The notes beneath the pieces are model-generated. The model was not told the origin of the DNA, made no database searches, and was given only the letters and a program-made list of their open reading frames with translations. Shown here piece by piece: positions 1,502 through 53,525 of a stretch of DNA of 64,000 bases. The position numbers and the translations under genes were made by a program. The DNA is from an uncultured Candidatus Saccharibacteria bacterium. GTDB lineage: Bacteria > Patescibacteriota > Minisyncoccia > Phycocordibacterales > UBA2100. The DNA is taken from contig CAZPGE010000003.1 in NCBI GenBank assembly GCA_964586255.1, positions 2,537 to 66,536 on the forward strand, given 5' to 3'. Numbering within the stretch: position 1 is the first letter of the stretch; each line of letters opens with the position of its first letter.

Positions 1502-1502
1502 T

Positions 1503-5510: not shown

Positions 5511-5513
5511 CAT

Positions 5514-6811: not shown

Positions 6812-6836
6812 AGTGTATTCCTATACAATACCAGTC

Positions 6837-9088: not shown

Positions 9089-10248
9089 AGCCAGTCTTCA
9101 CGGTGAGCGGCTTTCTCATAATCGCCGCATGTGCTTTTGCGCTTATATTTTTTGCTGATGTTCGCTCTGCGCATAGTGAAGCCCAGCGCATCGTGGAGAT
9201 TTGCTCAGGAGAATCAGCACATGCCGAGTGTTACGAACGGGAGGTTCCGAGATTGCTTCCCGACTATTCACTCACGCAGGCCTTCGACGTCATACGTCAG
9301 ATTCGGTTAATCGACCCTGCGTACCAATTTTGTCACGTGCTTGCGCATAAACTCGGAGAGAGAGTCGTCGCTGAAGACCCCGACAAATGGATAGATGCCA
9401 TCCCGCTCAATCCGACGGATGGCCTGTGTTCAAATGGATATATTCACGGGGTGTTGGGTGGCCGATTTCGAGCAGAGGTTCTTGAACCGGCGGCTCTCAG
9501 AAAACTCATACCAGACTTCACGAGAGCATGCGCGTCGAGGAAAGAGTGGCGCTCCAGCGAACTGGACCGCGCCATATGCAGCCACGGCATGGGGCATCTC
9601 TATATGTTTATCACCGATGCGGACATTCCGCTTTCCCTTTCGCTTTGTGAAGACACGATGCCTGAGCAGCTGAGGCGCGTATGCCGCGAGGGTGTATACA
9701 TGCAAATTTATCAGCCGCTCGAACCGGATGACTATCTACTCATTGAGCGCATGCCCATAAAGCCGACGAAAGAAACACTCCGTTCCTTCTGTGCACGATA
9801 CACGAAAGATGAGTATGAGGGCGCATGTCTGCGAGAGGGCTGGCCATTTTTCCGAGAAGAGCTAAAGACTGGCGAAGGCATAACGAAATTTTGCTCAGGC
9901 CAGCCAAATGACCGAGAAGAGATAGCGTGCTTCGAATCCACGCTCGCACTCTCGGGCAGATTCAATCTAGGGAATCAGGCCAAGGCGCTCTCGCTGTGCA
10001 ACGAGGTTGCGGATAAATGGAAGGCGATGTGTTATTCGAGTGCGGCACGCGCGATACTTGAAGAGGACAGGGCAGAAGGGAAAAAGGCTGTCGCATTTTG
10101 TAAGAGCGCGGCAAACGATCAGCAAGACGAGTGTCTCGGGCAGCTTGCAGACACTGCCAGCTTCGTTTTCGGCAACTCCTCCGAACAGAAAAGGTTTTGT
10201 TCTCTCCTCCCAGTCCAGCTTAAGGAGCGTTGCCTGGGACAGCCATAG
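9085..10248 (+). CDS. N-terminally anchored Cys/His-rich repeat protein (family member 3)
   Basis: ATGA overlap with the upstream gene. TM helix (FLIIAACAFALIFFA). Motifs include QFCHVLAHKLGE, CSNGYIHGVLGG and ICSHGMGHLYMF. Confidence 0.7.
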   Translation: MKPVFTVSGFLIIAACAFALIFFADVRSAHSEAQRIVEICSGESAHAECYEREVPRLLPDYSLTQAFDVIRQIRLIDPAYQFCHVLAHKLGERVVAEDPDKWIDAIPLNPTDGLCSNGYIHGVLGGRFRAEVLEPAALRKLIPDFTRACASRKEWRSSELDRAICSHGMGHLYMFITDADIPLSLSLCEDTMPEQLRRVCREGVYMQIYQPLEPDDYLLIERMPIKPTKETLRSFCARYTKDEYEGACLREGWPFFREELKTGEGITKFCSGQPNDREEIACFESTLALSGRFNLGNQAKALSLCNEVADKWKAMCYSSAARAILEEDRAEGKKAVAFCKSAANDQQDECLGQLADTASFVFGNSSEQKRFCSLLPVQLKERCLGQP

Positions 10249-10260: not shown

Positions 10261-11943
10261 CTAGAATTTCGCTCCTTCGTGAACTAGGAACTCACGCAGG
10301 TCGTGGGCGATGCGATCGCGGTGTTCGTCAAAGCGTATGTCCGAGTACGTGACAAGGGCGGGGAGAGTACCGTTACTTGTAGAGCGCGCCTTAGGTGTGA
10401 TGTACAGCATTTCTCTCGAAGTATCTGAGGCGAGAAGAAGTGTTGGGAATGCAGCGTGTGTGAGAAATAGCGTTTGCGCACTGAGGTCATGAGGTGCTCC
10501 CTCCGCATACGTATCAAGATTGTTTTGTGTAATACGTACGATATTGGCAACAATTAAATCGAGTCCCGCAGACCCACTGCTCCATAGAAGCACAATTTCC
10601 TCAAGCTCACGGAGTTCTCCTGGAGAATTCGCTTGCGTCAGCACTTCGATAAGTGCTTCGCGTGTGTACACATATGCGTCTGACTCGTACCATACGTCAC
10701 CGGTAGAAAGGAGCGCTGAGCGATACGTGCGTGCAATTTCAGGGTGACGCTCCGCGAACTTTGCGCTAGCGCGCACCGCCTTTGCTCTCGTAAGATCCGT
10801 GCCGACATCGGGGCACAGATAGAACATCGTGGGGTTAATACGACTGAAACGCATGTCGTACTTTTTAGCGAGATATTGCAGCATTGGCGCCTTCGTATTT
10901 TCTGTGGGAGAAAAGATCACATCACCCACATACCACAGCGGAGCGATACCTAGGGGCTCCTCATTTCCTACAATGACGACATGGGGGTGGGGTAGTTCGC
11001 GAAGGCACACACTTTGCGTGAGGACAATGGGAGTCGAATTAGTAAATATGGGGGACGCCCTTTTTGTGAAGGTCTCGGCGTACAGCGTTCTCACCGAATC
11101 TATTAGAGTCCGGGACGCAGTGGATACACGCGGCGTCTTTGCGGCCGAAAGTGGAAATGCACGGCCAAGTATGAGCGAATCGGGATAACAATTCTCGATG
11201 CGGCCTTTCAGGCATGCATCGAGTTCCTGCGACTGACTTCCGAGTCTCTCAAACTCGCTCTCTATGCTGCGCGAAGTATCCAGCATGCTTTGGACTGAAA
11301 TGCTGCCACCGAATCCCTGGAATTGAGCCTTCTTTCCTGCCGTTATGAGCTCGTATGTCTTACGGAAATACGTACTGTCTTGGCGGCCAGCGGCGAGCGC
11401 GCGTCTTAGAGACGCATGATACAAGTCTCCATCTGTATCCGTACCGGATGCAATAAATGTACGCCGCGCTTTCTCAAGCTCAGCAAGCGACAATAAAAAG
11501 TGAATCGGATAGAGGCTGCGTATGGCAGATGTTTCCTGTGCGGTCATTTGTACACCCGCCAACTCATCCATGACTTCAGCGAGTTGGTGTGTAGAATCTT
11601 CAAGAAGTTGCGGGTCGCTTCCGGCAGCACTTAAAAGCGGTGCGCGACTCGCAAGCGTACGCGCGTAAGCAAGACGAAGAGCATTTCGGGCCGCAGTCGT
11701 AGATGTTCTCATGCCGTCCTCAGCTTCGACAAGACCGCCATGAATTCTGAACGATTTCCCTCGATACACGACGACCTCCTCTGTGCTCATCGTTTGAAGC
11801 ACAGAAGAGAAAAATGTGTCTGCGGCAGCCTGTTCATGTCGGTATCGGACGGCCGAAGAGATGGCACTCGCGGCTGCGAGGCCGAGAATAGCGTAGGCGA
11901 TATACGTGCGAATCCGGGTACTCATGGCACTGTAAGCATACAT
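10261..11943 (-). CDS. Large N-terminally anchored hypothetical protein (paralogue A)
   Basis: 560 aa. N-terminal TM helix. Shares length, architecture and motifs (ALRLAYA...; HFLLSLAELEKARRTF versus DFLEELANLEVARRQF) with 11977..13650. Confidence 0.6.
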   Translation of the reverse strand: MYAYSAMSTRIRTYIAYAILGLAAASAISSAVRYRHEQAAADTFFSSVLQTMSTEEVVVYRGKSFRIHGGLVEAEDGMRTSTTAARNALRLAYARTLASRAPLLSAAGSDPQLLEDSTHQLAEVMDELAGVQMTAQETSAIRSLYPIHFLLSLAELEKARRTFIASGTDTDGDLYHASLRRALAAGRQDSTYFRKTYELITAGKKAQFQGFGGSISVQSMLDTSRSIESEFERLGSQSQELDACLKGRIENCYPDSLILGRAFPLSAAKTPRVSTASRTLIDSVRTLYAETFTKRASPIFTNSTPIVLTQSVCLRELPHPHVVIVGNEEPLGIAPLWYVGDVIFSPTENTKAPMLQYLAKKYDMRFSRINPTMFYLCPDVGTDLTRAKAVRASAKFAERHPEIARTYRSALLSTGDVWYESDAYVYTREALIEVLTQANSPGELRELEEIVLLWSSGSAGLDLIVANIVRITQNNLDTYAEGAPHDLSAQTLFLTHAAFPTLLLASDTSREMLYITPKARSTSNGTLPALVTYSDIRFDEHRDRIAHDLREFLVHEGAKF

Positions 11944-11976: not shown

Positions 11977-13650
11977 TCAGTTTGTATCGAGATCGAATGA
12001 GCGAAAGAACCGCATGTATGAAATAGCGTCGGTCGTGGACAGAGTCTCATTCGAGAGTTCGGAGAGCAGCGCATATGGTTGCACGTCGGCAGACAAGGTA
12101 TTTGCTGGGAAGATTTGGTCGGTACCGTGTAAGGTGATGTTGAGAGAATTCGGCACGAGAGATAAGAAACCGCTTCGCGCAAAAAATAAATATGTCGCAT
12201 CAAAATCAATCGCTGCTTCGGGGGGGAAATGCAAATGCTTGGTCTCGTATGTATTGATGTCGCGCACCACACCCAGGATTCCGTCGCTCTTTGTGCGCAT
12301 GCGGAGCCACAACGAGCGAACATCATGCGAAATGGACTCCGGGAAGTCTGGGCTTTCCGAAAGTGTCCGCGCGTAGGTGAGATATGTCTCGACGTCGGCT
12401 GTTGTGATTATGTAAGCGGAGGCAAACGTGTTCTCAAGGCGCTCGAGCTCGGTGGCAAGGTTTCCTGAAGCCCTCATACTCAAGGTCTGGCGCAATGCAA
12501 AGTCCTTCACGGCATACGCTGCCATTACAGTCCCGAGGTCTGCTTGGGCCCCCACACATTCATAGTACGAGAGCGAGCTCATGTACACATACGGAATATG
12601 ATGAGCCGCAAAATATCCTATATACGGCAGTCCCGCGTATGGAGCACTTTCTACAAAGAGAATGTCTCCCACAAAAAGAGGTGAGGGTAGGGTTCCGCTG
12701 CCATTGTCTCGCATAGAAAAGAGTGGAGCCGTGCTGGAGTTCAGTGGCGTACATGCACTGTCGGGGAGTAGAAGTAGTTGCGAAGAGGTAAATCGGTAGC
12801 CGGAGCGCTCAAATATGTCGAGTGCACGTCCGGCGAATGTACGTGCCTCCGGATGCACAGGAGCAGCGAAGGTCGTCTGAAATTCTGGTAGGAGAATTTC
12901 AGTAGACGTGCATGCGCGGACGTGGCCTCGGAAGCATGTGAAGCGATTGCGCATGGAATTCGCTACATTGCCAGCATCTTTCTCGAGCTGGTCGAGTGCG
13001 TCAATAAAGTCGTCTCTACTCACGATTGATTGCGGGGTCGCAAAGCTTGGCGCGTCCAGAGGGACGGCCTTCTTAAACGCACGCTCAAATGCCGCGCGGT
13101 CTCTTTGAAAGGCATGAACCGTAGATAAGAGCTGAATTCGATAGCGCCTTGCGCTCTCGTCGTCGCCCACATTGAGGAATTGTCTTCTGGCCACTTCGAG
13201 ATTTGCAAGCTCTTCGAGAAAGTCGATGGGATACAAAAAGTGTTGTACAGAAAAAGTCTGATTGGAGCGTGTTTGTCGCACGGCCAGTTGTGATGCGGTA
13301 GAGCGGAGATTGGTTACGGAAGCTCGAAAGAAATCGATATCGATGTCGGGCAGCGCGAGTAGTGGATTGTTGCGCGCAGCGGATTTTTCGTACGCGAGTC
13401 GGAGTGCGGTGCGCTCTACTGCTCCCGCGACAGGCCCCGCTTCGTTCGCAACGGCGCCGAGCGATACGCGATAGGATACTCCGCGTATAGATACGGTCTC
13501 TTCGATGTGAGCATCTCGAAGAGCATTTGAAAAAAATGCCACCTCCGTGCGTTTTGCAGAGATTACTGAAACGAGGAGAACAAATCCGAAAAGTGCAAAG
13601 AAAAAAAGAGGGGCACGCACGAAGCGTTTCGACGCGAGACAAGCACGCAT
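11977..13650 (-). CDS. Large N-terminally anchored hypothetical protein (paralogue B)
   Basis: 557 aa. N-terminal TM helix (LFFFALFGFVLLVSVI). Tandem paralogue of 10261..11943. Confidence 0.6.
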   Translation of the reverse strand: MRACLASKRFVRAPLFFFALFGFVLLVSVISAKRTEVAFFSNALRDAHIEETVSIRGVSYRVSLGAVANEAGPVAGAVERTALRLAYEKSAARNNPLLALPDIDIDFFRASVTNLRSTASQLAVRQTRSNQTFSVQHFLYPIDFLEELANLEVARRQFLNVGDDESARRYRIQLLSTVHAFQRDRAAFERAFKKAVPLDAPSFATPQSIVSRDDFIDALDQLEKDAGNVANSMRNRFTCFRGHVRACTSTEILLPEFQTTFAAPVHPEARTFAGRALDIFERSGYRFTSSQLLLLPDSACTPLNSSTAPLFSMRDNGSGTLPSPLFVGDILFVESAPYAGLPYIGYFAAHHIPYVYMSSLSYYECVGAQADLGTVMAAYAVKDFALRQTLSMRASGNLATELERLENTFASAYIITTADVETYLTYARTLSESPDFPESISHDVRSLWLRMRTKSDGILGVVRDINTYETKHLHFPPEAAIDFDATYLFFARSGFLSLVPNSLNITLHGTDQIFPANTLSADVQPYALLSELSNETLSTTDAISYMRFFRSFDLDTN

Positions 13651-13654: not shown

Positions 13655-13867
13655 TCAGTATATGCCCCCGCAGCTTATGAAGAAAATCTCGTCTTCGTAT
13701 GCGTCGGGAACGCATCGTGCCGCCGCTAAAGTGTTCCTGTCCGTATTACCCTCGGAGTGAGTAAACCAGCCATGCGTCGACGAGGTATCCCCATATACGA
13801 GTATCCCGATGATGCCAACGAAGCACCCGAAAAGGAATAATTTCAGTGTCCTCATGTGTACGACCAT
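13655..13867 (-). CDS. Small TM peptide ending ...EDEIFFISCGGIY (candidate precursor or substrate peptide)
   Basis: 70 aa with an N-terminal TM helix (LKLFLFGCFVGIIGILVY). Its C-terminus resembles that of 23586..23816 (...KMLFISCGGFLD). Lies immediately downstream of the PaaK-like gene 13931..15196. Confidence 0.45.
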   Translation of the reverse strand: MVVHMRTLKLFLFGCFVGIIGILVYGDTSSTHGWFTHSEGNTDRNTLAAARCVPDAYEDEIFFISCGGIY

Positions 13868-13930
13868 AGTTCTCTGTCAGTATATCGTCCGCGAGAAGAT
13901 TCGCTAGAAGAGAAGGTGCTCACGGAGTGC

Positions 13931-15196
13931 TCAATGCCGTACAATTCTTCGAATCTTTGTGCCCGGTACGAGTGTAAGGTGTTCACATGTAAGTGGCAGG
14001 TAACGCGCAGAGGCGACCCCCTCCGCGTACGACATGAAAGGCCCGACGCGTATGAGCGACGAAATATCGGCGGCAAACACATCAAGTTTTACATCGGCAC
14101 GCAATTCGATATGGAGGGCGAACTTTAACTGTGGGCCAGACGGAGTTTCAACCTCGGAATAGTGGAGCTCAAACACATCTGAAACCTGCGAGGGGAATAG
14201 TCTGAGCACGCGCGCTATTTCGTCTGCACGCAACAAGCCACCGGGGATTTTAATGAAATCCATATCAGTGCGGCCAAGTACCGTAAATGACCACATCCCA
14301 TGTTCGTGACAGGGCGCCTCCATGATGCGTATCGTGTCACCGATGCGGAAACGAATAAGTGGAAAGGATGCCGGCTCTCCGGGGTATGTCGTAACTAAGA
14401 GATCACCTTCCGCGCCCACGCTCGGCTCGATGATGTTGCCGCTCTCGGCGTCGAGCAGTTCCAAGTAGTGTGTCTCTTTCGGGTGGTAATGGGCGATTGG
14501 TTCAAGAAGTGTAAGTGGTCGACATGGCATGCCCATATGCGCATCCTCGATTTCGCTTGAATTGTACGATTGTACGATAGTGGCATTGGGGAATGTATCG
14601 TGCATGTACTGTATTTGTGCACGGCTGCACACCTCCCCGGTCACTTCAATAAATCGAATTTCCGTATTGTTACCGAGCGCCTTCATTTCTTCTCCGATAT
14701 CGCGCACGTGGTATACAAATGCCGAAAATGCGTCTGCACCCGCCGCTTGCGCGAGTCTCGCCGACGCGCGCGGCTCTCTCGGGTCGAGGCATAGTACGTG
14801 CGGGGAACCGCCGTGCTCCTTTTGAAACGTTTCGTGCCAATGGGGCATCAAGGGTACGGTGAATGCCAGGAATGGTCTCTTGAAGTCATGGAAACGGAGT
14901 CGGTAGTCCATGCCTCGCACGTGCGTGCGAGGGGAAAAGAGTGGAATTTTGCCGCTTGTGCCGGACGATGCGCGCACGTGGTCAAGATTGGAAAGTGGAA
15001 TGAAGGATCGTTCCGCGAGTGCTTTGCGGGCAAGTGCGTCCTTTGTGAGAATCGGAAGCGCGCGCCAGCCGTCCATATCTTGGAGGTCGAGCGCAGGGGC
15101 ATCATGCGATAGACCATACAACTCGCGATAGAACGTGTTGTTGCCTGACCGTGTCGCGCGAGCAGCCAGGGCGTACAGGTCTTTTTGGGAAAGCAT
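13931..15196 (-). CDS. Adenylate-forming enzyme of the PaaK / coenzyme-F390-synthetase-like (ANL) family
   Basis: P-loop SSGTSGKIPLF, A7-like LIRFRIGDT, hinge-region GRTDMDFIKIPGG. 421 aa. Confidence 0.7.
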   Translation of the reverse strand: MLSQKDLYALAARATRSGNNTFYRELYGLSHDAPALDLQDMDGWRALPILTKDALARKALAERSFIPLSNLDHVRASSGTSGKIPLFSPRTHVRGMDYRLRFHDFKRPFLAFTVPLMPHWHETFQKEHGGSPHVLCLDPREPRASARLAQAAGADAFSAFVYHVRDIGEEMKALGNNTEIRFIEVTGEVCSRAQIQYMHDTFPNATIVQSYNSSEIEDAHMGMPCRPLTLLEPIAHYHPKETHYLELLDAESGNIIEPSVGAEGDLLVTTYPGEPASFPLIRFRIGDTIRIMEAPCHEHGMWSFTVLGRTDMDFIKIPGGLLRADEIARVLRLFPSQVSDVFELHYSEVETPSGPQLKFALHIELRADVKLDVFAADISSLIRVGPFMSYAEGVASARYLPLTCEHLTLVPGTKIRRIVRH

Positions 15197-15249
15197 ACTT
15201 GAAAACTATCGCACGCTCTCCCTGCTACCACAATTGCGGATGACCCTCT

Positions 15250-16302
15250 GTGTTCTATAATCACGTTATGCAAATGAACTGGATACGGGCAATCGTAGCC
15301 GTCGTGGTGATTGGGCTAGCCGCGTACGCCATATTCTTCCACAAAGCGACAGGAAGTGATGCGTCAGGTGCGTCGCGCACGGTGACGTGGCTTCTCTCAC
15401 ATCAGCCTACTGACGTCTTTGCCCGCGCAGCCGATGTGTTCGACGAGACTCTCCAAAGAGAGAGCGGAGGGAGTCTTTCTCTCGTACTCATGAAGCCCGA
15501 AGATATTGGAGTTGAAAAAGGCGACGTACCGCATGCAAAAGTGCTTGAGCAACTGAGTTTGGGCACTGCCGATATTGCCTCGGTCTATACCATACCGCTG
15601 GGGAATGAGTACCAGGATTTTCAGATGCTCAACCTGCCGTTCCTCTTCGGCTCATATGAAGAGGCGAATGCCTCGCTCGACGGAGCTGCATTATCGATTC
15701 TTGATACGCGCATGGACAACGTGAGGGGGCTCGCGTTCACTATGAGCGGAGGGCTACGCATCATTGCGTCGAGGAATACGGATATCCGAAAGATGAGCGA
15801 CCTGAAAGGTAAGCGCATTGCGACATCAGGCGGCGCTGTCGCGGAAGCGACCCTTGTGGCGCTTGGCGCCATTCCCGTGCCTCTTGATCTCGAGAATGAT
15901 GGTTCACGCGATTTTTCTTCCATCGATGGCGTAGAGACTACATATGCTCGCCTCTCGACGGCGCTTGGCTCAAACACTGCATTTACTTCACATATAAACG
16001 AGACAAATCACAGTGTGTTTCTCACGGCGATTATCGCGAGCGATACATTCTTCGATTCACTGACGCCCGTCGAGCAAGCGGCGCTCATCTCTGCGGCTCG
16101 TGCCGCGGCGAAAGTCGAACGGCAGGACTCTATCGCACTCAACGCCACGGTAAAAGAGGCGCTTCGTGCGAAAGGGAGCACTGTGAACGAAATATCTCCC
16201 GTGTCTCATCAGGAATTCGTGAACGCAACGAAGGCCGTATACCGGGAGTTTATGTCCCGCTTTTCACCGGATGTCTATGATGCGGTAGTGGGGGAGCGCT
16301 GA
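15250..16302 (+). CDS. Membrane-anchored TRAP-type (DctP-family-like) solute-binding protein, orphan (no DctQ/DctM nearby)
   Basis: N-terminal TM helix. Segments NLPFLFGSYEEANASLDG, DLKGKRIATSGG and ALGAIPVPLDLEN match the DctP fold consensus as I recall it. Confidence 0.55.
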   Translation: MFYNHVMQMNWIRAIVAVVVIGLAAYAIFFHKATGSDASGASRTVTWLLSHQPTDVFARAADVFDETLQRESGGSLSLVLMKPEDIGVEKGDVPHAKVLEQLSLGTADIASVYTIPLGNEYQDFQMLNLPFLFGSYEEANASLDGAALSILDTRMDNVRGLAFTMSGGLRIIASRNTDIRKMSDLKGKRIATSGGAVAEATLVALGAIPVPLDLENDGSRDFSSIDGVETTYARLSTALGSNTAFTSHINETNHSVFLTAIIASDTFFDSLTPVEQAALISAARAAAKVERQDSIALNATVKEALRAKGSTVNEISPVSHQEFVNATKAVYREFMSRFSPDVYDAVVGER

Positions 16303-17099
16303 GCGTTCTGCGCCCGGACAATTGTTTTCCCACAGACGCAGAGCCCCACTTCATCTGTGGTCAGACTGGTTTCGTAACGTATGAGGGGCAGTGGATCATC
16401 AATGTGGCCCGTGACGAGTGCATTGGTCCCGTGTTCCCAGGTGTACCCTGCGCCGACATGAAAGGAGAATTCTTTTCCTGCGATGTGTGCACACTGTTCG
16501 AGAACGGGCACCCCGGGTATTAGATGAATCTCTTGTACGAGTGTACGAGCCGAGTTCGTCAGTGCGGGTACGAGTGGCACCATGGAATCGCTTTTCTGTA
16601 CGATGTGCCATGTATCAGGAAATGAGAGACCGTTCACCATAAGAAATGTTGCGAACTCATTTGCGTCTGCAGCGTCTGTGACCACGACCGCAACTGATGA
16701 GCGAAGTATCGCCATCGCCCCGAGGGGCATGTTCCCCTTGTCGTTAACAAAAATAAAAAGACCTTGCTTGTTACACGCTGAAAAAAGCGGGATTTCGACT
16801 TGCCAAAAAAGCGGCAGGCGGACCATCAGCCCACGGCCCTCGTGATCGGCCAGCGTCCTCTCTATCGAGTCCCATCGCCATGATTCTGCGCGAGGGAATA
16901 TGGTGAGCGATGAGTCGCTGGGTGAAAACGAGCTCGGAACGTAGCGTCCTCGTAGGGATTGTGTATGCGTCAAAACTTTCTTTAATGAAATCGCAAGCGT
17001 CTCTGGCGTCATCTGTCGCTCCTCAATCTCTACGCCAGCACGTGCCCATTTCGCGCGCTCCGCAGCCGCTGCCTGTGAAATTCCTACGTCGTCCTGCAT
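16275..17099 (-). CDS. P-loop-less PaaK-like paralogue (degenerate adenylate-forming-enzyme homologue)
   Basis: Ends with a PaaK A7-like region (PLPLIRYETSLTTDEVGLCVCGK) but has no SxGTTG P-loop and no C-terminal subdomain. Same architecture as 24968..25750. Confidence 0.5.
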   Translation of the reverse strand: MQDDVGISQAAAAERAKWARAGVEIEERQMTPETLAISLKKVLTHTQSLRGRYVPSSFSPSDSSLTIFPRAESWRWDSIERTLADHEGRGLMVRLPLFWQVEIPLFSACNKQGLFIFVNDKGNMPLGAMAILRSSVAVVVTDAADANEFATFLMVNGLSFPDTWHIVQKSDSMVPLVPALTNSARTLVQEIHLIPGVPVLEQCAHIAGKEFSFHVGAGYTWEHGTNALVTGHIDDPLPLIRYETSLTTDEVGLCVCGKTIVRAQNAQRSPTTAS

Positions 17100-17167: not shown

Positions 17168-17635
17168 TTACATCGCTCCACCAAACAAGATCACGTCCGC
17201 ATTCGCGCGCTCCGCGCGCCACTTACGAGAAAGATCAACAGCAATAAGCATGCCAGGAGAAAGATCGGCGAGTGAGCCTGAGGCGGTCTCGGAGAAGCCC
17301 ACATACACTCCGTCGGAGGATATGAGACTTTGTCTGATAAAGAGGGTAACCTCGCTCACATCGATGGTGAGAGTCACATTTTCTTGTCCAGCTAAAATCT
17401 GATTTCTAAGAATTATGGTGAGTTGGTTTTTCGGAACATCGACACCGACGACTTCGGCGTGCCAAAGTGTCGAGCGTTGTGATAGAAGACTGCGCTCGGT
17501 CTCGTATTGAGCTACGAGCTTAGCGTATGTGCTTTGAAGGGTGTCATATGCATAACGATAGCTGAATGTTGCAAAAGCAAGTCCAGAGAGGCTCGCTGCA
17601 ATCACGACCACACCGGCAATATTCAGGATTTTCAT
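17168..17635 (-). CDS. Small N-terminally anchored hypothetical protein
   Basis: 155 aa. TM helix (IAGVVVIAASLSGLAFATF). Weak similarity to the adjacent 17632..18111 gene (VVGVDVPKNQLTIIL versus IVESVDLTQREITILV). Confidence 0.4.
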   Translation of the reverse strand: MKILNIAGVVVIAASLSGLAFATFSYRYAYDTLQSTYAKLVAQYETERSLLSQRSTLWHAEVVGVDVPKNQLTIILRNQILAGQENVTLTIDVSEVTLFIRQSLISSDGVYVGFSETASGSLADLSPGMLIAVDLSRKWRAERANADVILFGGAM

Positions 17636-18111
17636 AGATTCTCGGGGAGCGGTTTATTGACGACGAGTGAGAGCACTCTGAACGGGCCAGGATCTCGTTG
17701 GAGTCGAATCAAAGCGAGCAGTCCTCCTTGTGTTTTGCTGATATCGTATCGGGGAGTCTGGGCACGATCCAGGGTACTGGTGCTTTCCGCGATGCTGACA
17801 TTTGCAAAATTGTTTACGGCGTCGAAAGAAATCCTAAATGGCGCCCTCGCCTCCGGAAATCCGGGATACGCGACAAGAATGGTAATCTCTCTTTGAGTGA
17901 GGTCAACGCTCTCCACGATGCCGCGAATGCTAATGATTGACGTGGCGCTCTTTGGAGGTAATCCTCCCACCGTCCCCATCGATTCTATGAAGGGCGACAT
18001 CATAAAGTATGTGCTCAGTAGTCCGATGGCGCATCCACAAGTGATGCTCAGAATCGTGGTGCTTTGCATACACTCAAGTATATCGCGGTTGCGGATAAGG
18101 TAGGAAATCAT
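17632..18111 (-). CDS. Small N-terminally anchored hypothetical protein (possible paralogue of the previous gene)
   Basis: 159 aa. TM helix. Overlaps its neighbour by 4 nt. Confidence 0.4.
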   Translation of the reverse strand: MISYLIRNRDILECMQSTTILSITCGCAIGLLSTYFMMSPFIESMGTVGGLPPKSATSIISIRGIVESVDLTQREITILVAYPGFPEARAPFRISFDAVNNFANVSIAESTSTLDRAQTPRYDISKTQGGLLALIRLQRDPGPFRVLSLVVNKPLPENL

Positions 18112-19987
18112 GTCACAGATTGCACAGTGCTACACTTGGGGTACAGGTATGTGGCGCATGTCACTTTCTACAGCAGTTGTCATGTACGGCGGCGCACTTA
18201 TGGCGCTGCCGCTCATTGTCGCTCTTCTCAATACGGTAGGGATGGGTCTCGTCGGGGGATGGATACCCCTCCTTGCGCTCGGCGCAGCTTCAGCTGTTGC
18301 AGCGCTCGCGCTCCTCACAAGAAAGACGACGATAGCGCTCCCGCGAAATATTCATATTTTGGCCGGACTCCCCATTCTCGTTGTGTCGGTGGCATCGCTC
18401 GTAGGTCGACCATCGCTTGAAACCATGGTATTCGGAGTCTCGCTTGAGACAGGCACCGTAGGCTCGTTTTTTTTGTTTGCGAGCGCTATAGTATGCGGCT
18501 CTCTCATGGCACGCGCAAACATGTTGCGCCTCCTCGATATTTTTTTGGGTGCCTCTGCGGCAGGTTCCGTTATAACGTTTACCCGCATAGCTTTCTTGGG
18601 ATGGGAGCATGTTGAACTCATGAACAATGTATCGCTCATTATATGTGCGGCCCTGATTGTCGCAGTCTTACGAGCTGAAGGAGCACGCGGGAGAGCACGT
18701 CTTGTATATGGTGCATGCGCGTTCTTGTTTAGCGCCCTTCTCTTCTTCACATCTAGTGGGAGCACCAACTTGCTTTCGGTAATTACCTTGCTCGCTATAA
18801 GTGCGTTCGTGGTTTGGCGTAGCAACATCGAGCATATTCCGTGGACCGCGGTAATCTCCACTCTTTTTATCGGAGTCTTATTGCTTGTTGGTCACGTGGG
18901 GAAATTCATACCGACATCACCTGATGTGAGACCCTCCTTGTCGGTGACTTCGCGTTTAGCCGGTGCGCTGTATTTCCAAGACATACAAGGCGCCTTGTTG
19001 GGAATTGGCCCAAATGGATTTCACTATGCGTGGGAGAAGCATCGTGTACCTGAGCTCAATGCTTCGCCGCTTTGGCAACTTTCTCCTCACCACGGTTATT
19101 CGACAGCCGCGACGTTCGCTGTGACGATGGGAATGCTCGGATTCCTCGCATTTTTTCTTATGACACTTTCATTCGTCGTGTTTACCGTACATCGACTTGT
19201 GTGTTTATTCAAAGACGGCGATGCTGAGATGCTCACGCACGCACTCCCGGCTGTAGCGCTTGCACTTTTTGCCCTCGCAGCGATGTTCACGGAGGTCCTC
19301 GAGTCCCCGTTATTTCTCATCGGTGGGGTAGCAGTCGGTATGTCTGTACGCGCGCTAGAATCGGAAGTGCGCATCATACCTATCGACTTTTCATTTGGTG
19401 GGTCGCGTCTTGTTGCAGGACTTATTGCGATAGTGGCACTCGCCATGTCTGCACTATTGCTACAGGCTTCGATGCGCCCGGTGATTGCCGAGAGATTTCA
19501 TGCCCGGGCAGTTGCCCATGCCTCCGTGGGGGACGCCATAGCACCAGAATTGTTTGAACGTGCGGCGCGCATCTGGAAAACACCTCGCTATAGTCTTGAT
19601 GCATCTCGGGCTTTTGTGGAGCGTGCTCGCGTAGCCGGAGAGGGGGGCGATACATATGGTCTACGCGTCTCAGTCGAGAAGGCCATTTCGTATGCGGGAG
19701 GCGCTACTGATTCTGATCCGAATAATTATGAAGTATGGCTGTATCGAGGTTCACTTTTTATGGCACTTATCTCGAGTGGATATCCCCAAGCGGCAGAAAA
19801 TGCGTACGCTGACATTCAGGAGGCAAAAATGCGAGCTCCTGCGCGTCCAGATGTGCACTACCAAGAGGCGCTGCTTGAGACGGCGCGTGGTAGAAAAGTG
19901 AATGCCCGCATTGCTCTGGAAAGAGCGATAGAGCTCAAGCCCGATTACGCCGAGGCGCTTTCTCTTTTCAAATCATTGTCTGAATAA
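18110..19987 (+). CDS. Polytopic membrane protein with a C-terminal TPR-like domain (O-antigen-ligase/Wzy-like architecture)
   Basis: At least 10 predicted TM helices, followed by ~170 aa of helical repeats (EVWLYRGSLFMALISSGYPQAAENAYADIQEA...KPDYAEALSLFKSL). Confidence 0.45.
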   Translation: MSQIAQCYTWGTGMWRMSLSTAVVMYGGALMALPLIVALLNTVGMGLVGGWIPLLALGAASAVAALALLTRKTTIALPRNIHILAGLPILVVSVASLVGRPSLETMVFGVSLETGTVGSFFLFASAIVCGSLMARANMLRLLDIFLGASAAGSVITFTRIAFLGWEHVELMNNVSLIICAALIVAVLRAEGARGRARLVYGACAFLFSALLFFTSSGSTNLLSVITLLAISAFVVWRSNIEHIPWTAVISTLFIGVLLLVGHVGKFIPTSPDVRPSLSVTSRLAGALYFQDIQGALLGIGPNGFHYAWEKHRVPELNASPLWQLSPHHGYSTAATFAVTMGMLGFLAFFLMTLSFVVFTVHRLVCLFKDGDAEMLTHALPAVALALFALAAMFTEVLESPLFLIGGVAVGMSVRALESEVRIIPIDFSFGGSRLVAGLIAIVALAMSALLLQASMRPVIAERFHARAVAHASVGDAIAPELFERAARIWKTPRYSLDASRAFVERARVAGEGGDTYGLRVSVEKAISYAGGATDSDPNNYEVWLYRGSLFMALISSGYPQAAENAYADIQEAKMRAPARPDVHYQEALLETARGRKVNARIALERAIELKPDYAEALSLFKSLSE

Positions 19988-19991: not shown

Positions 19992-21344
19992 ATGCTCATG
20001 CAATCTCGAAATATCGGCTTCGGAGTGGGCGTGACCGTACTCACGTGCGTACTCGCAGCGTATGCGGTAGTTTCGAGTCTTTCTCCGAAAGTCTTTACGA
20101 TTACGCTCACCGAGTCAGGATTTGTGCCCTCAAGATTGCTCATAGATAAGGGAGATACCGTCGTCTTTATATCTGAGGTCGAGGACGCATTCTGGCCGGC
20201 ATCGGACTCGCATCCCACCCACGGTCGCTATCCTGAATTTGACCCAGGTCGCGCGCTCGTTCCGGGAGAGTCATGGGAATTCACGTTTGAGAAAGCCGGT
20301 GTGTGGACATTCCATGATCACCTGAGGACGGGTCTGAGAGGCAAGATATTGGTCATGGGCGCAAAAGGTGAAAGCAGCAGGAATTGTCTAAAGGTACAAA
20401 CCGGGACCATACAGCCTGAGTGCTGGGAAGCCGAAGTTGTATCTGTCGTGCGCACAAGAGGTACGGAAGCGGCATTCGACTCGATACGAACATGGTATGA
20501 AGAGAGCAGTGACTTCCGGAGAAATTGTCATGATGTTATGCATATTGTGGGCGTTGCGGCATATGCCGAATATGCCGGGAAAGGACTCGTTACGATACGA
20601 GACGAGACGTCGTATTGCGGGCATGGCTTTTATCACGGATTTGTTGAAAAGATGCTTTTGGAACGCGGGGCAGGCCAGTACGCGGAGGCCGATGCGTATT
20701 GCACGGATCTCAAGGTCATGAAGCCCGAGGCGGCCGGATCGTGTTATCACGGTATCGGTCACGCGGTATTCGATTCAATCGATGGTTCTTTGTGGGGTAA
20801 TGACGTCGGCATGGTCGACTTCGCGCTTGGCGTATGCCAAGCGGCACTGTCAGGCGAGTGGGAGCGCGTGCGTTGTGGTTCCGGCATCTTTAATGCGCTG
20901 GCGAATGCGTATAGTGCAAGAACCTATGACCTCACGTATCTCGATAATAAGCCGCCCTCTCTTTGCGACAATGTGCCGAAAGCGTATCAAGACTTTTGCA
21001 ATATGGAACTTGGCAATGGATATATCCGAGATAAACATTGGGGGCAGGCACAGGAAATCGATTTCATTCGACGTATCGAAAATCAGGAAGTTCGCGCTGC
21101 GATCATCGTGGGATATATGGACACTGAGGTCAAACGTTCTATAGATGCTGTTGACGTAGGGGCATTCGCGAAGTTGTGCCGCTCCTTCTCAATAGAGCAA
21201 GATATTCATGCGTGCGTTGTAGGAGTTCATTCGGGTTTGCGGGGGATCGGCGAGCCCGAAAACGAGGATGGGCTCGTGGAATCGTTTTGCAGGCTTTTGG
21301 ATGGTCCATACCGCATGACGTGTACCGAGAGTACTCGCCCATAG
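19992..21344 (+). CDS. Anchored fusion protein: cupredoxin-like domain plus Cys/His-rich repeat domain (family member 4)
   Basis: TM helix, then a cupredoxin-fold signature (GDTVVFISEVEDAFWPASDSHPTHGRYPEFDP...WEFTFEKAGVWTFHDHLRTGLRGKILV), then YCGHGFYHGF and SCYHGIGHAVFD motifs. Confidence 0.7.
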   Translation: MLMQSRNIGFGVGVTVLTCVLAAYAVVSSLSPKVFTITLTESGFVPSRLLIDKGDTVVFISEVEDAFWPASDSHPTHGRYPEFDPGRALVPGESWEFTFEKAGVWTFHDHLRTGLRGKILVMGAKGESSRNCLKVQTGTIQPECWEAEVVSVVRTRGTEAAFDSIRTWYEESSDFRRNCHDVMHIVGVAAYAEYAGKGLVTIRDETSYCGHGFYHGFVEKMLLERGAGQYAEADAYCTDLKVMKPEAAGSCYHGIGHAVFDSIDGSLWGNDVGMVDFALGVCQAALSGEWERVRCGSGIFNALANAYSARTYDLTYLDNKPPSLCDNVPKAYQDFCNMELGNGYIRDKHWGQAQEIDFIRRIENQEVRAAIIVGYMDTEVKRSIDAVDVGAFAKLCRSFSIEQDIHACVVGVHSGLRGIGEPENEDGLVESFCRLLDGPYRMTCTESTRP

Positions 21345-21364
21345 TGTGCAATAATGGCCTCGAT

Positions 21365-21751
21365 ATGCGCGCGGTATTCAGTATCTTGATAGTGCTTGCA
21401 GTCGTCGCGCTCGTAGGTGCCCTCGTGTATACGAGCACCCCATCCAAAGTAAAGATAGTCGACTTTCAGGGACAAGAAAGAGTCGATATCGTGCTGAAAG
21501 AAGACGGTTTCGAACCGCGCGATATCCGCGTGACTCGGGGCACCGTGGTGACCTTTACTACAACGCGTCCAAACAAATTCTGGCCGGCTTCCAACGCGCA
21601 TCCATCGCATGATGTGTACCCGCAGTTTGACCCGCAGAAGGTGCTGAGCCCAGAGGAATCATGGTCGTTCACATTTGACGTGGTGGGTGTGTGGGGTTAC
21701 CACGATCACGTGCGTTCGTATTTTACCGGGGTCATATATGTGGATGAATAA
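21365..21751 (+). CDS. Small anchored cupredoxin-like protein (stand-alone paralogue of the N-terminal domain of 19992..21344)
   Basis: Starts at Met 64 of ORF 21176..21751 (MRAVFSILIVLAVVALVGALVY). Contains RGTVVTFTTTRPNKFWPASNAHPSHDVYPQFDP...WSFTFDVVGVWGYHDHVRSYFTGVIYV. Confidence 0.65.
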   Translation: MRAVFSILIVLAVVALVGALVYTSTPSKVKIVDFQGQERVDIVLKEDGFEPRDIRVTRGTVVTFTTTRPNKFWPASNAHPSHDVYPQFDPQKVLSPEESWSFTFDVVGVWGYHDHVRSYFTGVIYVDE

Positions 21752-22946: not shown

Positions 22947-22978
22947 ATCGGCCTGAGTCCCATGATAGCCTGCACAGT

Positions 22979-23585: not shown

Positions 23586-23816
23586 ATGAAAAGTCTCCGA
23601 GAAAGAACCTCCGGTATCTTTTTTGGCCTGGCGGCTCTCGGCTTAACCATCGGAGCCACAATGGCCTTGTGGTCTGCTCGTTTCGGGACCTCCGTGTTTG
23701 GGCACAAGTCCTCACTCTCAGTTTCCAACACATGTCTTCCGGGACAGGCCTCGGTGCTTAAAAAAGAAAACCCAAACAAGATGCTCTTCATCTCATGCGG
23801 TGGATTTTTGGATTAA
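23586..23816 (+). CDS. Small TM peptide ending ...NKMLFISCGGFLD (candidate precursor or substrate peptide)
   Basis: 76 aa with an N-terminal TM helix (IFFGLAALGLTIGATMALW). Its C-terminus is shared with 13655..13867. Immediately upstream of the PaaK-like gene. Confidence 0.45.
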   Translation: MKSLRERTSGIFFGLAALGLTIGATMALWSARFGTSVFGHKSSLSVSNTCLPGQASVLKKENPNKMLFISCGGFLD

Positions 23817-23862
23817 TGACGACGTGTCATACCGTCGGCAGTGGAATAAGCGGTAATCGCAC

Positions 23863-24966
23863 ATGATGGAAAGAAGTGACATTGCCGCACTCTACAACGA
23901 GATTCTCGATGAGTTTGTTGCACACCCACCCGAAAAGCCGCAGGAGTACTGGATACGCATGACCTCGGGTACGACGACCGGTAGGCCTTTCCTCACGATG
24001 TGGCACAAGAAAAGCGCCGCTGATTGGCCTCATGCAGAGAGCATGCGTCGTTTTATTGTTGCATACGGATTGCTTGCGACTCGCATGAGCAACGTGCTTT
24101 CTTTTCGCATCAATACTGAAAACGAAGGTGCGCTCGTCCTTCCGTTCGATGCCGGTGCGCTCGAACCGTGGGTCGAGCGCCTCCTCTATGATTTTGCACC
24201 CGACAGTTTTTACGCAATCCCGTCTTTTGCTGTCCGCATCTCCGAGCATATGAGCGAAGAATCCCGGAGCAACGTACACACGCTCGGTTTTTCGGGTGAA
24301 CCAATGTCAAAGACGCTTAGAGATTTGTTTATGTCACGATTCCCAAAGGCGAGGCAGGTTATTACATTCGCCACGTCCGAGACCGGAGTCATCACAGGAT
24401 TCCCGTGCGATTATCTTTCTCCGAATCGATATCATCCGCGCGAGGGAGTCGTGATTGAAGTCGAGGAGCCCGACGAGCGGGGTATCGGATACCTACTTAT
24501 CAGTAAAGACCTTCTCTTCGGGAAGCGCATGGAGCGCTACAAGATTGGTGATATGGCCCGCATCGTGCCGGAAGCATGTCCGTGCGGGCAAGCGCTCACA
24601 TTTGAAGTTTTTGGCCGCGCCGGATACGATTTTATAAAAGTAGCTGGAGCAATTTTGCAGCGAGAGGAATTTGATCGTGTCGCGAGCGAATGCGCGGCAC
24701 TCTTCGACGACTACTATGCGGAGGCGGAAGCCGTCGTCGCCGACGGAAAGTTGAAGGGTAAAATAGTTCTCACCGTGTATCGGTCGAATGGCGCGCCGGC
24801 TGTTGAAGAAATTGCACGGGAATTTTCGGCGCGAATATATCTCAGTGTCTCGCAAACGCTGGAGCAGTTTGTTGCACAAGGATTGTTTCTCCCGCTCACC
24901 GTTTTAGTGAGCACAACACCCTTGGTGCGGGACGGGAAGGCGAAGAAGCTTTCGTTGCGTACATAA
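23863..24966 (+). CDS. Adenylate-forming enzyme of the PaaK / coenzyme-F390-synthetase-like (ANL) family
   Basis: P-loop TSGTTTGRPF, A7-like RYKIGDMARIVPEACPCGQ, hinge GRAGYDFIKVAGAIL. Confidence 0.7.
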   Translation: MMERSDIAALYNEILDEFVAHPPEKPQEYWIRMTSGTTTGRPFLTMWHKKSAADWPHAESMRRFIVAYGLLATRMSNVLSFRINTENEGALVLPFDAGALEPWVERLLYDFAPDSFYAIPSFAVRISEHMSEESRSNVHTLGFSGEPMSKTLRDLFMSRFPKARQVITFATSETGVITGFPCDYLSPNRYHPREGVVIEVEEPDERGIGYLLISKDLLFGKRMERYKIGDMARIVPEACPCGQALTFEVFGRAGYDFIKVAGAILQREEFDRVASECAALFDDYYAEAEAVVADGKLKGKIVLTVYRSNGAPAVEEIAREFSARIYLSVSQTLEQFVAQGLFLPLTVLVSTTPLVRDGKAKKLSLRT

Positions 24967-24967
24967 C

Positions 24968-25750
24968 ATGCATATGAGTACACCGATTGAGAATAGCACC
25001 GAGCTTGAGCAACTAATCTCGTTTGTACGCGAAAGTTCGCTCAGTGATTTCTATAGAAATAAATGGGGGACCGCGCAGACATACGGCGGTCTTCCACATA
25101 CTTCGCGCGCTGACTTCATAGCGGCCCCACTTTCCAAGCGTCGCTATAAGAAAGAGAAAGGTATGGTGAAAATCGTAGGAACAGGCGAACAAGCTTTTTT
25201 GTCCGAATGGAGCTTTACGGACATTGGACGAGAACCGTATGCACCGCATAGCACACGCCCGTTTGTCTACATGACAGATTCATATGATGCGGTAGAGAAA
25301 TCTTTGTGGTGCTATGAGAATGGCATGACGCCGCTCGTCGGAGAGAAAGACTCGGACATGGCCATCTTTGCAGCTGAGCGATATCAAATCGACTCGCTAC
25401 TCGTCGACGAACAGTCTCTTGCGAAATTTGCACCGTTTTTTTCGACACTCGAGGCACCGCTTTCCTCTATTACGATTATTGCGTCTAGCTTTTCTCCAAG
25501 CGAGCTTATGTCGCTTGAACGGTACGCCTCATCTATACGCCTGGTCCTCGCGCTGCCCGAAACAGGTGCATTTGCCGAAGCACCACTCTCACGAAACCCG
25601 GAATTCGCCCCGCTCCCGCACTGTGTAATCGAGCATGAATCGGGGATTATTCTCACGAAATTCGCACGGTATCCGACGCCAATCATTCGCTACCGAACCG
25701 ACATACACACACTACCGATTCCCGGTAGCCAGAGCTTTACGTTGCTCTAG
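24968..25750 (+). CDS. P-loop-less PaaK-like paralogue (degenerate adenylate-forming-enzyme homologue)
   Basis: Starts 1 nt after the upstream stop. About 260 aa, ending in an A7-like YPTPIIRYRTDIH. No P-loop. Confidence 0.5.
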   Translation: MHMSTPIENSTELEQLISFVRESSLSDFYRNKWGTAQTYGGLPHTSRADFIAAPLSKRRYKKEKGMVKIVGTGEQAFLSEWSFTDIGREPYAPHSTRPFVYMTDSYDAVEKSLWCYENGMTPLVGEKDSDMAIFAAERYQIDSLLVDEQSLAKFAPFFSTLEAPLSSITIIASSFSPSELMSLERYASSIRLVLALPETGAFAEAPLSRNPEFAPLPHCVIEHESGIILTKFARYPTPIIRYRTDIHTLPIPGSQSFTLL

Positions 25751-26890: not shown

Positions 26891-26953
26891 TGGGCGTTGG
26901 CCACATCCGAAAGGGATTTTCCTGGAAAGGCGGGTGATATACTGCTTCGTACT

Positions 26954-48743: not shown

Positions 48744-48780
48744 ATGACGGAGTTCGTAACTCCGTCATATTGTTTTAGTA
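48744..48780 (+). terminator. Hairpin plus T-run after gyrB (the region also holds a second hairpin at 48711-48728 on the convergent gene's side)
   Basis: atgacggagt-tcgta-actccgtcat followed by attgtttta. Confidence 0.45.
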
Positions 48781-49749: not shown

Positions 49750-49815
49750 CTTTACATGAATATATGCGTTTGTCAAGTGCTCTGGGAGGGGCCTATTGAC
49801 AAAGAGGCACATAAG

Positions 49816-52305: not shown

Positions 52306-52356
52306 AAAAACCGAATAAAACTATCGGTTTTGGCCCTAACATTGAGAGGAAATGCC

Positions 52357-52656: not shown

Positions 52657-52668
52657 AGAGGAGATGTC

Positions 52669-52953: not shown

Positions 52954-52971
52954 CCATGGTCTTTACAACAA

Positions 52972-53515: not shown

Positions 53516-53525
53516 AGTTCTTCCC

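Follow-up and report, generated by a model that had tools for sequence, protein, structure and literature searches.

We found that a 64,000-nt stretch of DNA from an uncultured Candidatus Saccharibacteria bacterium (assembly GCA_964586255.1, contig CAZPGE010000003.1, positions 2,537-66,536 of the forward strand; hereafter the window), a genome of the candidate phyla radiation (CPR, or Patescibacteria), carries two copies of a gene module in which a membrane-anchored, cysteine-tailed micropeptide (pepA, pepB) is encoded beside a PaaK-like ligase (ligA, ligB) of the ANL (acyl-CoA synthetase, nonribosomal peptide synthetase, luciferase) superfamily and beside a catalytically dead paralogue of that ligase (degA, degB). 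In the first copy, module A, these genes are accompanied by a solute-binding protein (SBP) gene of the DctP type and by a gene for an anchored extracytoplasmic protein, X557 (Table 1). The reading that we favour, with a probability of about 0.4, is that this locus represents a copy of a micropeptide-modification module specific to CPR, the ligase of which would activate an organic, probably aromatic, acid and load it on a cysteine of the peptide. No published description of the module was found in literature searches, and neither Pfam nor NCBIfam holds a model for pep, deg or X557.

In the relatives of the window, sequence within 10 kb on either side of each ligase gene was examined. Modules were counted around 23 ligase genes flanked on both sides by 5 kb of sequence or more, peptides were surveyed by scanning about 50 related loci, and a metagenome scan contributed about 11 close loci. 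As many loci come from related metagenome-assembled genomes, counts across loci are not phylogenetically independent. All topology calls were made from charge and hydrophobicity alone, and functional readings that go past domain assignment and co-occurrence are inferred.

Cysteine-tailed micropeptides and their PaaK-like ligases

A preliminary description of the locus had placed four open reading frames (ORFs) in module A, those of pepA, ligA, degA and the DctP-like protein, and all four were present at the coordinates and on the strands given in Table 1. PepA is composed of basic N-terminal residues, a single hydrophobic helix, an internal cysteine, and a tail in which another cysteine is the fifth residue from the C-terminal end (position -5). 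In 43 non-redundant relatives, basic residues were likewise followed by one hydrophobic helix and by 38-59 more residues, and the Cys-Gly-Gly (CGG) motif stood at a constant distance from the stop codon. The motif was followed by exactly two residues, [ITLMF][YF], in 32 peptides (A type, Cys -5), and by three residues, F[LIF][DEQ], in 11 (B type, Cys -6); a second cysteine preceded it by 14-24 residues in 42 of the 43. Both cysteine codons and all four glycine codons were used in the motif, and all three stop codons were found at the constant position after the tail. Given this variety of codons for an invariant motif, it is the protein, together with the place at which its C-terminus falls, that is under selection. 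The micropeptide is a real, conserved gene. The positive-inside rule predicts that the peptide is oriented with its N-terminus inside and its C-terminus outside, so that the conserved tail would lie outside the membrane.

The type of the peptide tail was perfectly paired with the subtype of the neighbouring ligase (36/36 pairs; 27/27 for A and 9/9 for B). Peptide and ligase genes were separated by 40-65 bp (pepA lies 63 bp past ligA and 4 bp ahead of X557), and up to four pairs occurred in one locus. A short precursor gene that adjoins, and co-varies with, a dedicated modifying enzyme, as among peptides that are made on the ribosome and modified after translation (RiPPs), was thus what we found in the peptide/ligase pairs. 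No protease, ABC exporter or RiPP recognition element domain was detected by domain scans of the module neighbours. An exhaustive profile search with the two window peptides, which has low power for such short sequences, gave 11 matches, all of 67-84 aa and none of them a fusion of the micropeptide.

The closest architectural analogue of the micropeptide is DltX. In the Dlt system, the ANL ligase DltA activates a small acid, and DltX, which has one transmembrane (TM) helix and an invariant residue in its conserved extracellular C-terminal hexapeptide, is the shuttle by which this acyl group reaches an extracytoplasmic, membrane-anchored transferase (PMC12148441). The micropeptides are also single-TM microproteins with a conserved motif at the extreme C-terminus, at a fixed distance from the end, and their invariant Cys -5/-6 is a candidate acyl-accepting residue. 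However, the motif is based on cysteine here (CGG-x-x), whereas it is FxYxxF in DltX, and no MBOAT protein (DltB), carrier protein (DltC) or SGNH protein (DltD) was found by Pfam or NCBIfam in the gene island that surrounds the modules.

That ligA encodes a full PaaK-like enzyme and degA a degenerate one, as proposed in the preliminary description, was confirmed by profile comparison, AlphaFold2 (AF2) modelling and Foldseek. A profile of the ligase family made from 21 homologues matched solved PaaK structures (9s3l, E = 7e-15; 2y4o, 2.5e-14; 4r1l, 2.3e-13). The matches of LigA to the NCBIfam PaaK, FlxY and DVU_1553 models were weak (2e-9 to 5e-8), and its scores were far below the PaaK equivalog cut-offs (29.8 vs. 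646 bits for TIGR02155, and 36.6 vs. 700 bits for NF041878), as were those of LigB (15.5 and 26 bits, respectively). The Pfam AMP-binding domain was absent from the ligases or scored below its gathering threshold, and Pfam gave nothing for LigA. All the ANL core motifs are present in LigA, namely the P-loop, A5 Y-x-S-E (Y-x-SSE), A7 GD (RFRIGD), A8 GR (GR..K..GG) and the A10 lysine, and the motif residues SSGTSGK77-83, Y211..E217, R282..G286-D287, G308-R309, K316 and K414 show little or no variation among the 21 homologues. On these grounds, we predict LigA to be an active, highly divergent PaaK-like ligase.

Over 130 homologues of LigA were found. All the named ones come from Patescibacteria (Kaiserbacteria, Nomurabacteria, Lloydbacteria or Minisyncoccota), and in databases they are labelled 'phenylacetate-CoA ligase family' or 'hypothetical'. 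The module is widespread in CPR. No enzymes of paa catabolism were detected by Pfam or NCBIfam among the window ORFs scanned (module neighbours and about ten others), and the ligase genes of the window are surrounded by genes for secreted or anchored proteins without assigned function.

The closest solved or curated relatives of Lig and Deg are the CoA-independent PaaK-like ligases ClxA, NatL2 and BagE/FevW, and FlxY of flexirubin synthesis, which adenylate aromatic acids (PMC9400959). LigA scores far under every curated cut-off, and those enzymes, which belong to natural-product pathways, have small molecules as their substrates. We know of none among them that has a ribosomal peptide or a truncated dead paralogue for a partner.

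The dead paralogue and the two window copies of the module

Members of the deg family lack the P-loop and the whole C-terminal domain of the ligases. By hhalign, DegA aligned to residues ~130-310 of the ligase profile (E = 1.7e-4), and its AF2 model (pLDDT 85, pTM 0.84) had ClxA, BT_0428 and PaaK1/2 as top PDB matches in Foldseek (E down to 1.4e-9, TM-score about 0.6). The domain loss, the alignment, the model and the structural matches together confirm that DegA is a degenerate PaaK-like protein. In many genomes, deg and lig are translationally coupled. In one 590-aa protein (P0105, from a 50.6-kb contig), a partial deg domain (E = 3e-20) is joined to a ligase of full length, which could reflect either a genuine fusion or an artefact of a frameshift or of gene calling. 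The coupling and this fusion fit a Lig-Deg complex, in which Deg would probably serve as a non-catalytic partner or as a peptide-docking subunit.

Module A has the order deg-lig-pep on the minus strand, while module B (23586-25750, plus strand) has the order pep-lig-deg. LigA and LigB are 26% identical, DegA and DegB 21% (E = 0.002), and no nucleotide similarity was found between the two loci. A recent segmental duplication, which the preliminary description had already doubted because gene order and nucleotide identity do not match, can be rejected in view of these values, and the two modules are ancient paralogues. The same description had held that both copies have the same content. This is true of the peptide, the ligase and the dead paralogue, but the B copy has neither a binding protein nor X557.

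Within range of the 23 fully flanked ligases, deg was found 22 times, pep 22 times and X557 21 times. Together with the perfect subtype pairing, these counts support the functional linkage of the peptide, the ligase and the dead paralogue that had been proposed from the two window copies. They also widen the module beyond the peptide, the two enzymes and the DctP-like protein to which it had been limited: X557, whose gene comes next after the peptide gene in nearly all modules, belongs to it, and X560, an X557 paralogue that comes after X557, belongs with it. Both proteins have four invariant cysteines and match no known family. X557 has no Pfam, NCBIfam or PDB sequence match, a word-indexed homologue search gave only three matches, and an AF2 model made from four sequences was unusable (pLDDT 51).

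An orphan solute-binding protein accompanies the module

The DctP-like gene overlaps degA by 28 bp in a convergent orientation and starts 53 bp from ligA in a divergent one. Its assignment held under profile search (Pfam PF03480, E = 1.1e-34, 120.5 bits vs. a cut-off of 23.4; NCBIfam NF037995, TRAP_S1, 89.5 bits vs. 50). It scored under the cut-off of TIGR00787 (74.6 vs. 175 bits), and 60 solved DctP-family proteins matched it (best 4p47, 1.4e-17). As the protein has a single N-terminal hydrophobic helix (residues ~6-24) and no lipobox, we consider it membrane-anchored.

A gene of the DctP or of the TctC family (PF03401) was present within 5 kb of 22/23 modules (DctP in 19/23, TctC in 6/23, the latter assigned with Pfam E-values of 5e-14 to 3e-45). 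By hidden Markov model searches, 26 such genes were found in 373 kb of core-type loci, as compared with none in 510 kb of distant-CPR loci and none in 1.37 Mb of control loci of ordinary PaaK. Hence, the co-occurrence of the DctP-like orphan with the module, raised in the preliminary description, extends to other genomes. The position between the two enzymes is that of the DctP gene in the window, L006, L007 and L163, but it varies elsewhere: in L164 and L165 the gene stands between lig and pep, and in L003 and L167 it is upstream. Beside A-type ligases, it is almost always on the opposite strand. The number of SBP genes about follows that of the modules. In L166:1-21266 and L009:800-13900, up to four paralogous ligase/peptide modules lie within about 20-21 kb, with a matching number of SBP genes; L166 has four ligases and four SBPs (two DctP and two TctC), and L009 has three TctC and no DctP. 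Two different families of organic-acid SBPs occupy the same slot of the module.

DctP and TctC (including the orphan TctC proteins of the 'Bug' type) are the SBPs of the tripartite ATP-independent periplasmic (TRAP) and the tripartite tricarboxylate (TTT) transporters, respectively, and the domain assignments leave the module proteins clearly within these families, which include TarP, a DctP-type SBP for coumarate and cinnamates (PMC3610893). Unlike the transporter SBPs, those of the module occur without membrane subunits, and the two families are interchangeable in one non-transport module. In agreement with the preliminary description, no DctQ/DctM was found in the window, and no TctA/TctB either; nor was any of them found within 10 kb on either side in seven related loci (Pfam-marked gene tables). 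Since no permease was found in this sequence, the delivery of a ligand into the cell, which had been suggested, has no evident route.

The window DctP also appears to differ at a site of presumed ligand contact. In alignments, the arginine of the G-L-K-[IM]-R motif of 4p47, 4p9k and 4n8y, which we take to correspond to the carboxylate-clamping Arg147 of SiaP, is matched by the alanine of G-K-R-I-A-T. Ten DctP orthologues have alanine at this site too, and an arginine two residues upstream instead. The importance of the carboxylate-binding arginine of DctP proteins (SiaP Arg147) is documented (PMC3610893).

One could, in a way close to the preliminary description, read the whole arrangement as acid scavenging, in which the SBP would capture an external organic acid, the acid would be imported, and the ligase would convert it to an acyl-coenzyme A (CoA) for metabolism or for the envelope, with the micropeptide and X557 merely co-located and not substrates. 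PaaK relatives do usually make CoA thioesters. The strong association of the SBP with the module would also be in line with scavenging, DctP and TctC being classic receptors of organic-acid uptake (PMC3610893). However, no conserved permease of another kind accompanies the module in the sequence searched for DctQM and TctAB, and scavenging explains neither the perfect peptide-ligase pairing, nor the presence of one peptide per ligase in loci with up to four modules in 21 kb, nor the dead paralogue. Moreover, distant ligase-peptide pairs exist without any binding protein. Scavenging is less consistent with the data and, in our view, very unlikely.

Distant relatives retain the peptide and the ligase

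Ligases of other CPR bacteria that are 22-31% identical to LigA or LigB also have a TM-anchored micropeptide encoded nearby. The distant peptides end in ...FSGCNSIL/II, ...FSGCSSLI, ...LFVGCNGFF, ...RFIGCNNMF or ...LFAGCAVIF, which generalises the motif to [F]-x-[GST]-C-x-x-hydrophobic-hydrophobic-COOH, with Cys -5, a lipobox-like F-x-[GS] ahead of it and a second cysteine upstream. Per 100 kb, core loci held 8.9 peptides of this kind and distant-CPR loci 4.5, as compared with 0.21 for the control loci, where the three matches were to the same peptide family in misclassified loci. The distant ligases have the motifs of the family, among them the C-terminal K-x-[KR]-x-[ILV]-x-x-H, and their median score against the A-type profile was 116 bits, as compared with 78 for the window's own B-type ligases and 70 for ordinary PaaKs. 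The distant modules have no DctP or TctC gene and are mostly without deg. As such modules exist without any binding protein, we regard the SBP as an accessory component. The invariant core over all branches is formed by the ligase and the Cys(-5) micropeptide.

Two sub-branches differ in what else they carry. In one (L013, L110, L116), the ligase gene is divergent from X557. In the other, a gene for an Lnt-like apolipoprotein N-acyltransferase (LNT_N and CN_hydrolase domains; TIGR00546, 8e-33) is translationally coupled to the ligase gene in at least 13 loci, and a gene for a membrane methyltransferase similar to ICMT/PEMT is divergent from it in at least 11. In at least 7 loci of this Lnt sub-branch, the peptide gene has a gene for an aromatic-amino-acid ammonia-lyase as its immediate same-strand neighbour. 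The lyases scored 552-630 bits on FlxA, the tyrosine ammonia-lyase (TAL) of flexirubin synthesis, vs. about 405-442 bits on histidine ammonia-lyase. Some loci also have an O-methyltransferase gene and a gene of the UbiA (prenyltransferase) family. This sister cluster was seen in L101:9959-14231 and L117:4323-9744, and further in L018, L019, L024, L040, L053, L100, L102, L103, L106-L108, L113, L118 and L119. As L053 is labelled Acidimicrobiales, the ligase-Lnt pair may extend past CPR. X557 and the Lnt-like enzyme did not co-occur in the loci examined; because they were never together in one locus, they may fill equivalent extracytoplasmic roles.

The company of such enzymes brings to mind a lipidation of the tail similar to that of lipobox or CaaX proteins. 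The F-x-[GS]-C segment would be treated as a lipobox, or its cysteine prenylated, after which the lipidated C-terminal pentapeptide would be N-acylated by the Lnt-like and carboxyl-methylated by the ICMT-like enzyme, the ligase supplying or activating the acyl or the carboxyl group. A lipobox has the consensus [LVI][ASTVI][GAS]C and stands at the end of an N-terminal signal peptide. The residues up to the cysteine (FISC, FVSC, FSGC, FVGC, FAGC) fit its core, and in the distant branch the ligase gene repeatedly has Lnt-like, ICMT/PEMT-like and UbiA-family genes next to it. Nevertheless, unlike in known Lgt substrates, the motif is at the extreme C-terminus, 38-59 residues past the helix and with acidic residues ahead of it. 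The cysteine of a CaaX motif is at -4, not at -5 or -6, and no such lipid enzymes are encoded in the window or in core-type loci. Like scavenging, lipidation is less consistent with the data, and we hold it to be highly improbable.

The generalised motif bears on the main alternative, unlikely as it is, namely that the ligase adenylates the C-terminal carboxylate of the peptide itself, and that the cysteine four residues upstream attacks it to close a five-residue thiolactone ring. The product would be a cyclic thioester similar to staphylococcal autoinducing peptides (AIPs), made with ATP and independently of AgrB; it could be a signal bound by the SBP, or an activated C-terminus for transfer by X557 or the Lnt-like enzyme. 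The most conserved feature in all branches is Cys-x-x-hydrophobic-hydrophobic-COOH with a fixed stop, and AIP rings such as CSSLF and CDFIM have the layout Cys-x-x-hydrophobic-hydrophobic. Ring closure is the best account of the rigid distance between the cysteine and the C-terminus, and it agrees with the co-variation of the tail with the ligase subtype. It agrees as well with the A-type tails, which end in Tyr or Phe and so resemble the aryl-acid substrates of PaaK, and with the apparent loss of the carboxylate-clamping arginine of the SBP (by alignment), which suits a ligand without a free carboxylate. Enzymes of the Lnt type work through a cysteine acyl-enzyme and an amine acceptor, and could take a thioester as donor.

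In comparison with the agr system, the peptides share with AgrD an N-terminal membrane-associating segment and a cysteine followed by four residues, the last two of them hydrophobic. However, they end at the would-be ring position, so that no C-terminal tail is cleaved, and the formation of the ring would require ATP through the ligase, a step that is hypothetical. Domain scans of the neighbours revealed no AgrB, AgrC or AgrA. To our knowledge, no ANL ligase activates the C-terminus of a ribosomal peptide. The B-type peptides, with Cys -6 and D, E or Q as the last residue, and the TAL-like lyase beside the distant-branch peptides are left unexplained by ring closure.

Genes around the modules

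The coordinates of the module genes and of their recurrent neighbours are collected in Table 1.

Table 1. Genes of the two modules and neighbouring features in the window
Feature	Coordinates	Strand	Description
X560	10261..11943	-	X557 paralogue, ~560 aa, 26% identity, N-terminally anchored
X557	11977..13650	-	557 aa, N-terminally anchored, extracytoplasmic, four invariant Cys; begins 4 bp past pepA
pepA	13655..13867	-	70 aa, C-terminal ...IFFISCGGIY
pepA motif codons	13658..13684	-	FFISCGGIY, conserved C-terminal motif
ligA	13931..15196	-	421 aa, PaaK-like ANL adenylate-forming ligase, cytoplasmic
DctP-like orphan	15250..16302	+	350 aa, membrane-anchored SBP, Pfam PF03480
degA	16275..17099	-	274 aa, catalytically dead PaaK N-terminal-domain paralogue
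Polytopic protein	18110..19987	+	~11 TM, C-terminal tetratricopeptide repeats (TPRs; only Pfam matches); recurrent neighbour
pepB	23586..23816	+	76 aa, B-type micropeptide, ends NPNKMLFISCGGFLD, Cys 6th from C-terminal end
ligB	23863..24966	+	367 aa, B-type PaaK-like ligase
degB	24968..25750	+	260 aa, B-type dead paralogue; begins 1 bp past ligB stop

The polytopic protein of 625 aa can tentatively be counted as a member of the module. An 'O-antigen-ligase-like' label for it was rejected, since Pfam found only TPRs and no Wzy or O-antigen-ligase match, and since only designed TPR proteins matched it in the PDB. Its gene and those of two anchored proteins of 155 and 159 aa (17168-18111) recur together beside the B-type module in L003, L008, L163 and L164, and a gene for the polytopic TPR protein lies within about 1 kb of the ligase gene in the distant loci L012 and L014.

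The proteins encoded at 6813-10248, 17168-18111, 19992-23539 and 25829-26890 gave no informative family match, only weak cupredoxin-like N-termini. Conserved single-TM families encoded at 6813-10248 and 19992-23539 accompany the module in most related loci. Among the island proteins, V407, V368 and V387 are related to one another (V387 is 50-57% identical across genomes); Cys/His-rich domains and an N-terminus with weak cupredoxin likeness are seen in Z450, Z423 and Z191. The segments 98-4874 and 4917-6811 hold local paralogue families, all without known domains; there, a 467-aa ORF and the C-terminal third of an adjoining 1123-aa ORF are 61% identical, and anchored proteins of 197, 181 and 253 aa, encoded by three genes in tandem, have a mutual identity of 55-58%.

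Farther from the modules, genes of the pentose-phosphate pathway and glycolysis (GAPDH, 26897-27958; RpiB-like, 27960-28454) accompany a gene for a type IV pilin-like protein (28743-29180) with the N-terminus KRGFTLIELLVVIAIIG, typical of CPR genomes; these assignments come from inspection of the sequence, together with Pfam marks that match in L164. At 48775-50520, a gene for a CARDB-domain surface protein adjoins one for a sortase-domain protein, and the two could form a sortase-substrate pair. Four adjacent ORFs at 52285-54369, the coding status of which is putative, share a C-terminal segment of about 30-55 residues with 48-61% identity. The GC content is 57-59% at 52-60 kb, vs. about 52-55% elsewhere in the window. 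A tRNA-Thr was the sole Rfam match, and a scan for promoters and terminators found none above shuffled expectation.

Discussion

If the ligase loads an acid on the peptide cysteine, as we favour, the following course can be envisaged. In the cytoplasm, the ligase, with Deg as its probable partner, would spend ATP on the adenylation of an organic carboxylic acid, most likely an aromatic one, and the acyl group would pass directly from the ligase to the thiol of the invariant cysteine, giving an acyl-thioester. The loaded tail would then be placed outside the membrane in the N-in, C-out orientation, where it would meet X557 and the binding protein or, in the distant branch, the Lnt-like acyltransferase instead. 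The binding protein, an accessory part, may recognise the acid in its free form, or else the acyl group that the tail of the peptide carries. The fixed C-terminus, the selection on the motif, the pairing of tail and ligase, the tight gene spacing, the ANL motifs, the fold and coupling of Deg, and the association with the SBP all support this model.

We favour loading on cysteine because the set of TAL-like genes and PaaK/FlxY/BagE-like ligases mirrors the logic of the operons of photoactive yellow protein (PYP), and because ClxA and NatL2 transfer aryl groups directly. In the PYP operons (pyp-pCL-TAL), TAL makes p-coumarate, which is activated by the ligase and ends as a thioester on Cys69 (PMC12826048). 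ClxA and NatL2 are PaaK-like ligases that pass aryl-adenylates directly to non-CoA nucleophiles (PMC9400959), and the module ligases match, albeit weakly, FlxY and BagE, aromatic-acid ligases that work with TALs. The likeness to PYP lies in the combination of a TAL, an ATP-dependent aromatic-acid ligase and an acceptor cysteine, as in the distant CPR branch, where a TAL-like gene is operonic with the Cys-peptide gene and a ligase gene is nearby. In contrast to PYP, however, the acceptor here would be a membrane-anchored micropeptide of about 70 aa and not a PAS-fold photoreceptor, the ligase is PaaK-like and not 4CL-like, and the window clade has an orphan SBP, a dead ligase paralogue and X557 instead of TAL.

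The preliminary description had suggested that the ligand of the binding protein is the acid activated by the ligase. A relation between the two gains indirect support, as an organic-acid SBP family replaces the lyase in the window clade, DctP and TctC swap in one slot, and TarP binds coumarate and cinnamates. Where the SBP is lacking, in the distant branch, a TAL-like gene stands beside the peptide gene, and the aromatic acid would therefore be made in situ. On the other side stand the lack of a permease in the sequence searched, the alanine that aligns to the canonical arginine and the accessory nature of the SBP.

Several points weigh against loading on cysteine. The window clade has no lyase, and, in the sequence searched, no permease that would let in an acid bound on the outside, and its DctP clade is, by alignment, without the canonical carboxylate-binding arginine. 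The cysteine motif is predicted to be outside and the ligase to be cytoplasmic, so that loading would have to precede export. The transfer to cysteine, and not to an amine or to CoA, is suggested by the invariance of the cysteine and by precedent only, and simple S-acylation does not require a strictly fixed distance between the cysteine and the C-terminus.

A broader possibility, distinctly unlikely as we see it, is that the ligase loads a high-energy thioester, be it acyl-S-Cys or a C-terminal thiolactone, in the cytoplasm, and that the microprotein carries this bond outside, where there is no ATP. X557 or the Lnt-like enzyme would then spend the bond on attaching the acyl or peptidyl group covalently to an acceptor that is held by the DctP/TctC-type protein, or on the surface of the cell or of its host. 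If so, the peptide would serve episymbiotic CPR bacteria as an 'energy shuttle', ribosomally encoded and used only once, for extracytoplasmic ligation, and the solute-binding proteins would be repurposed to present a substrate, not to act as transport receptors.

Taken singly, the components (ANL ligase, SBP, Cys-acceptor peptide) are of known kinds; what appears to be new is that they are combined, that the combination is spread CPR-wide and that TRAP/TTT SBPs are used in it as orphans. CPR genomes are small and most of their genes are unannotated, and the module is multi-copy and conserved in several CPR lineages. With it, no fewer than five 'hypothetical' families receive testable roles, namely those of the Cys-tailed micropeptide, of the PaaK-like ligase and its dead paralogue, of X557 and of the orphan DctP/TctC proteins. 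Should the peptide be acylated or cyclised by the ligase, a new way for an ANL enzyme to modify a ribosomal peptide or protein would be added to those known, together with a new, non-transport use of TRAP/TTT SBPs. Additionally, the sister architecture, with its TAL-like lyase, ligase, Lnt-like and ICMT-like enzymes and micropeptide, points to a surface peptide modified with an aromatic acid or a lipid in host-attached organisms, and so bears on how host-attached CPR bacteria build and decorate their envelope.

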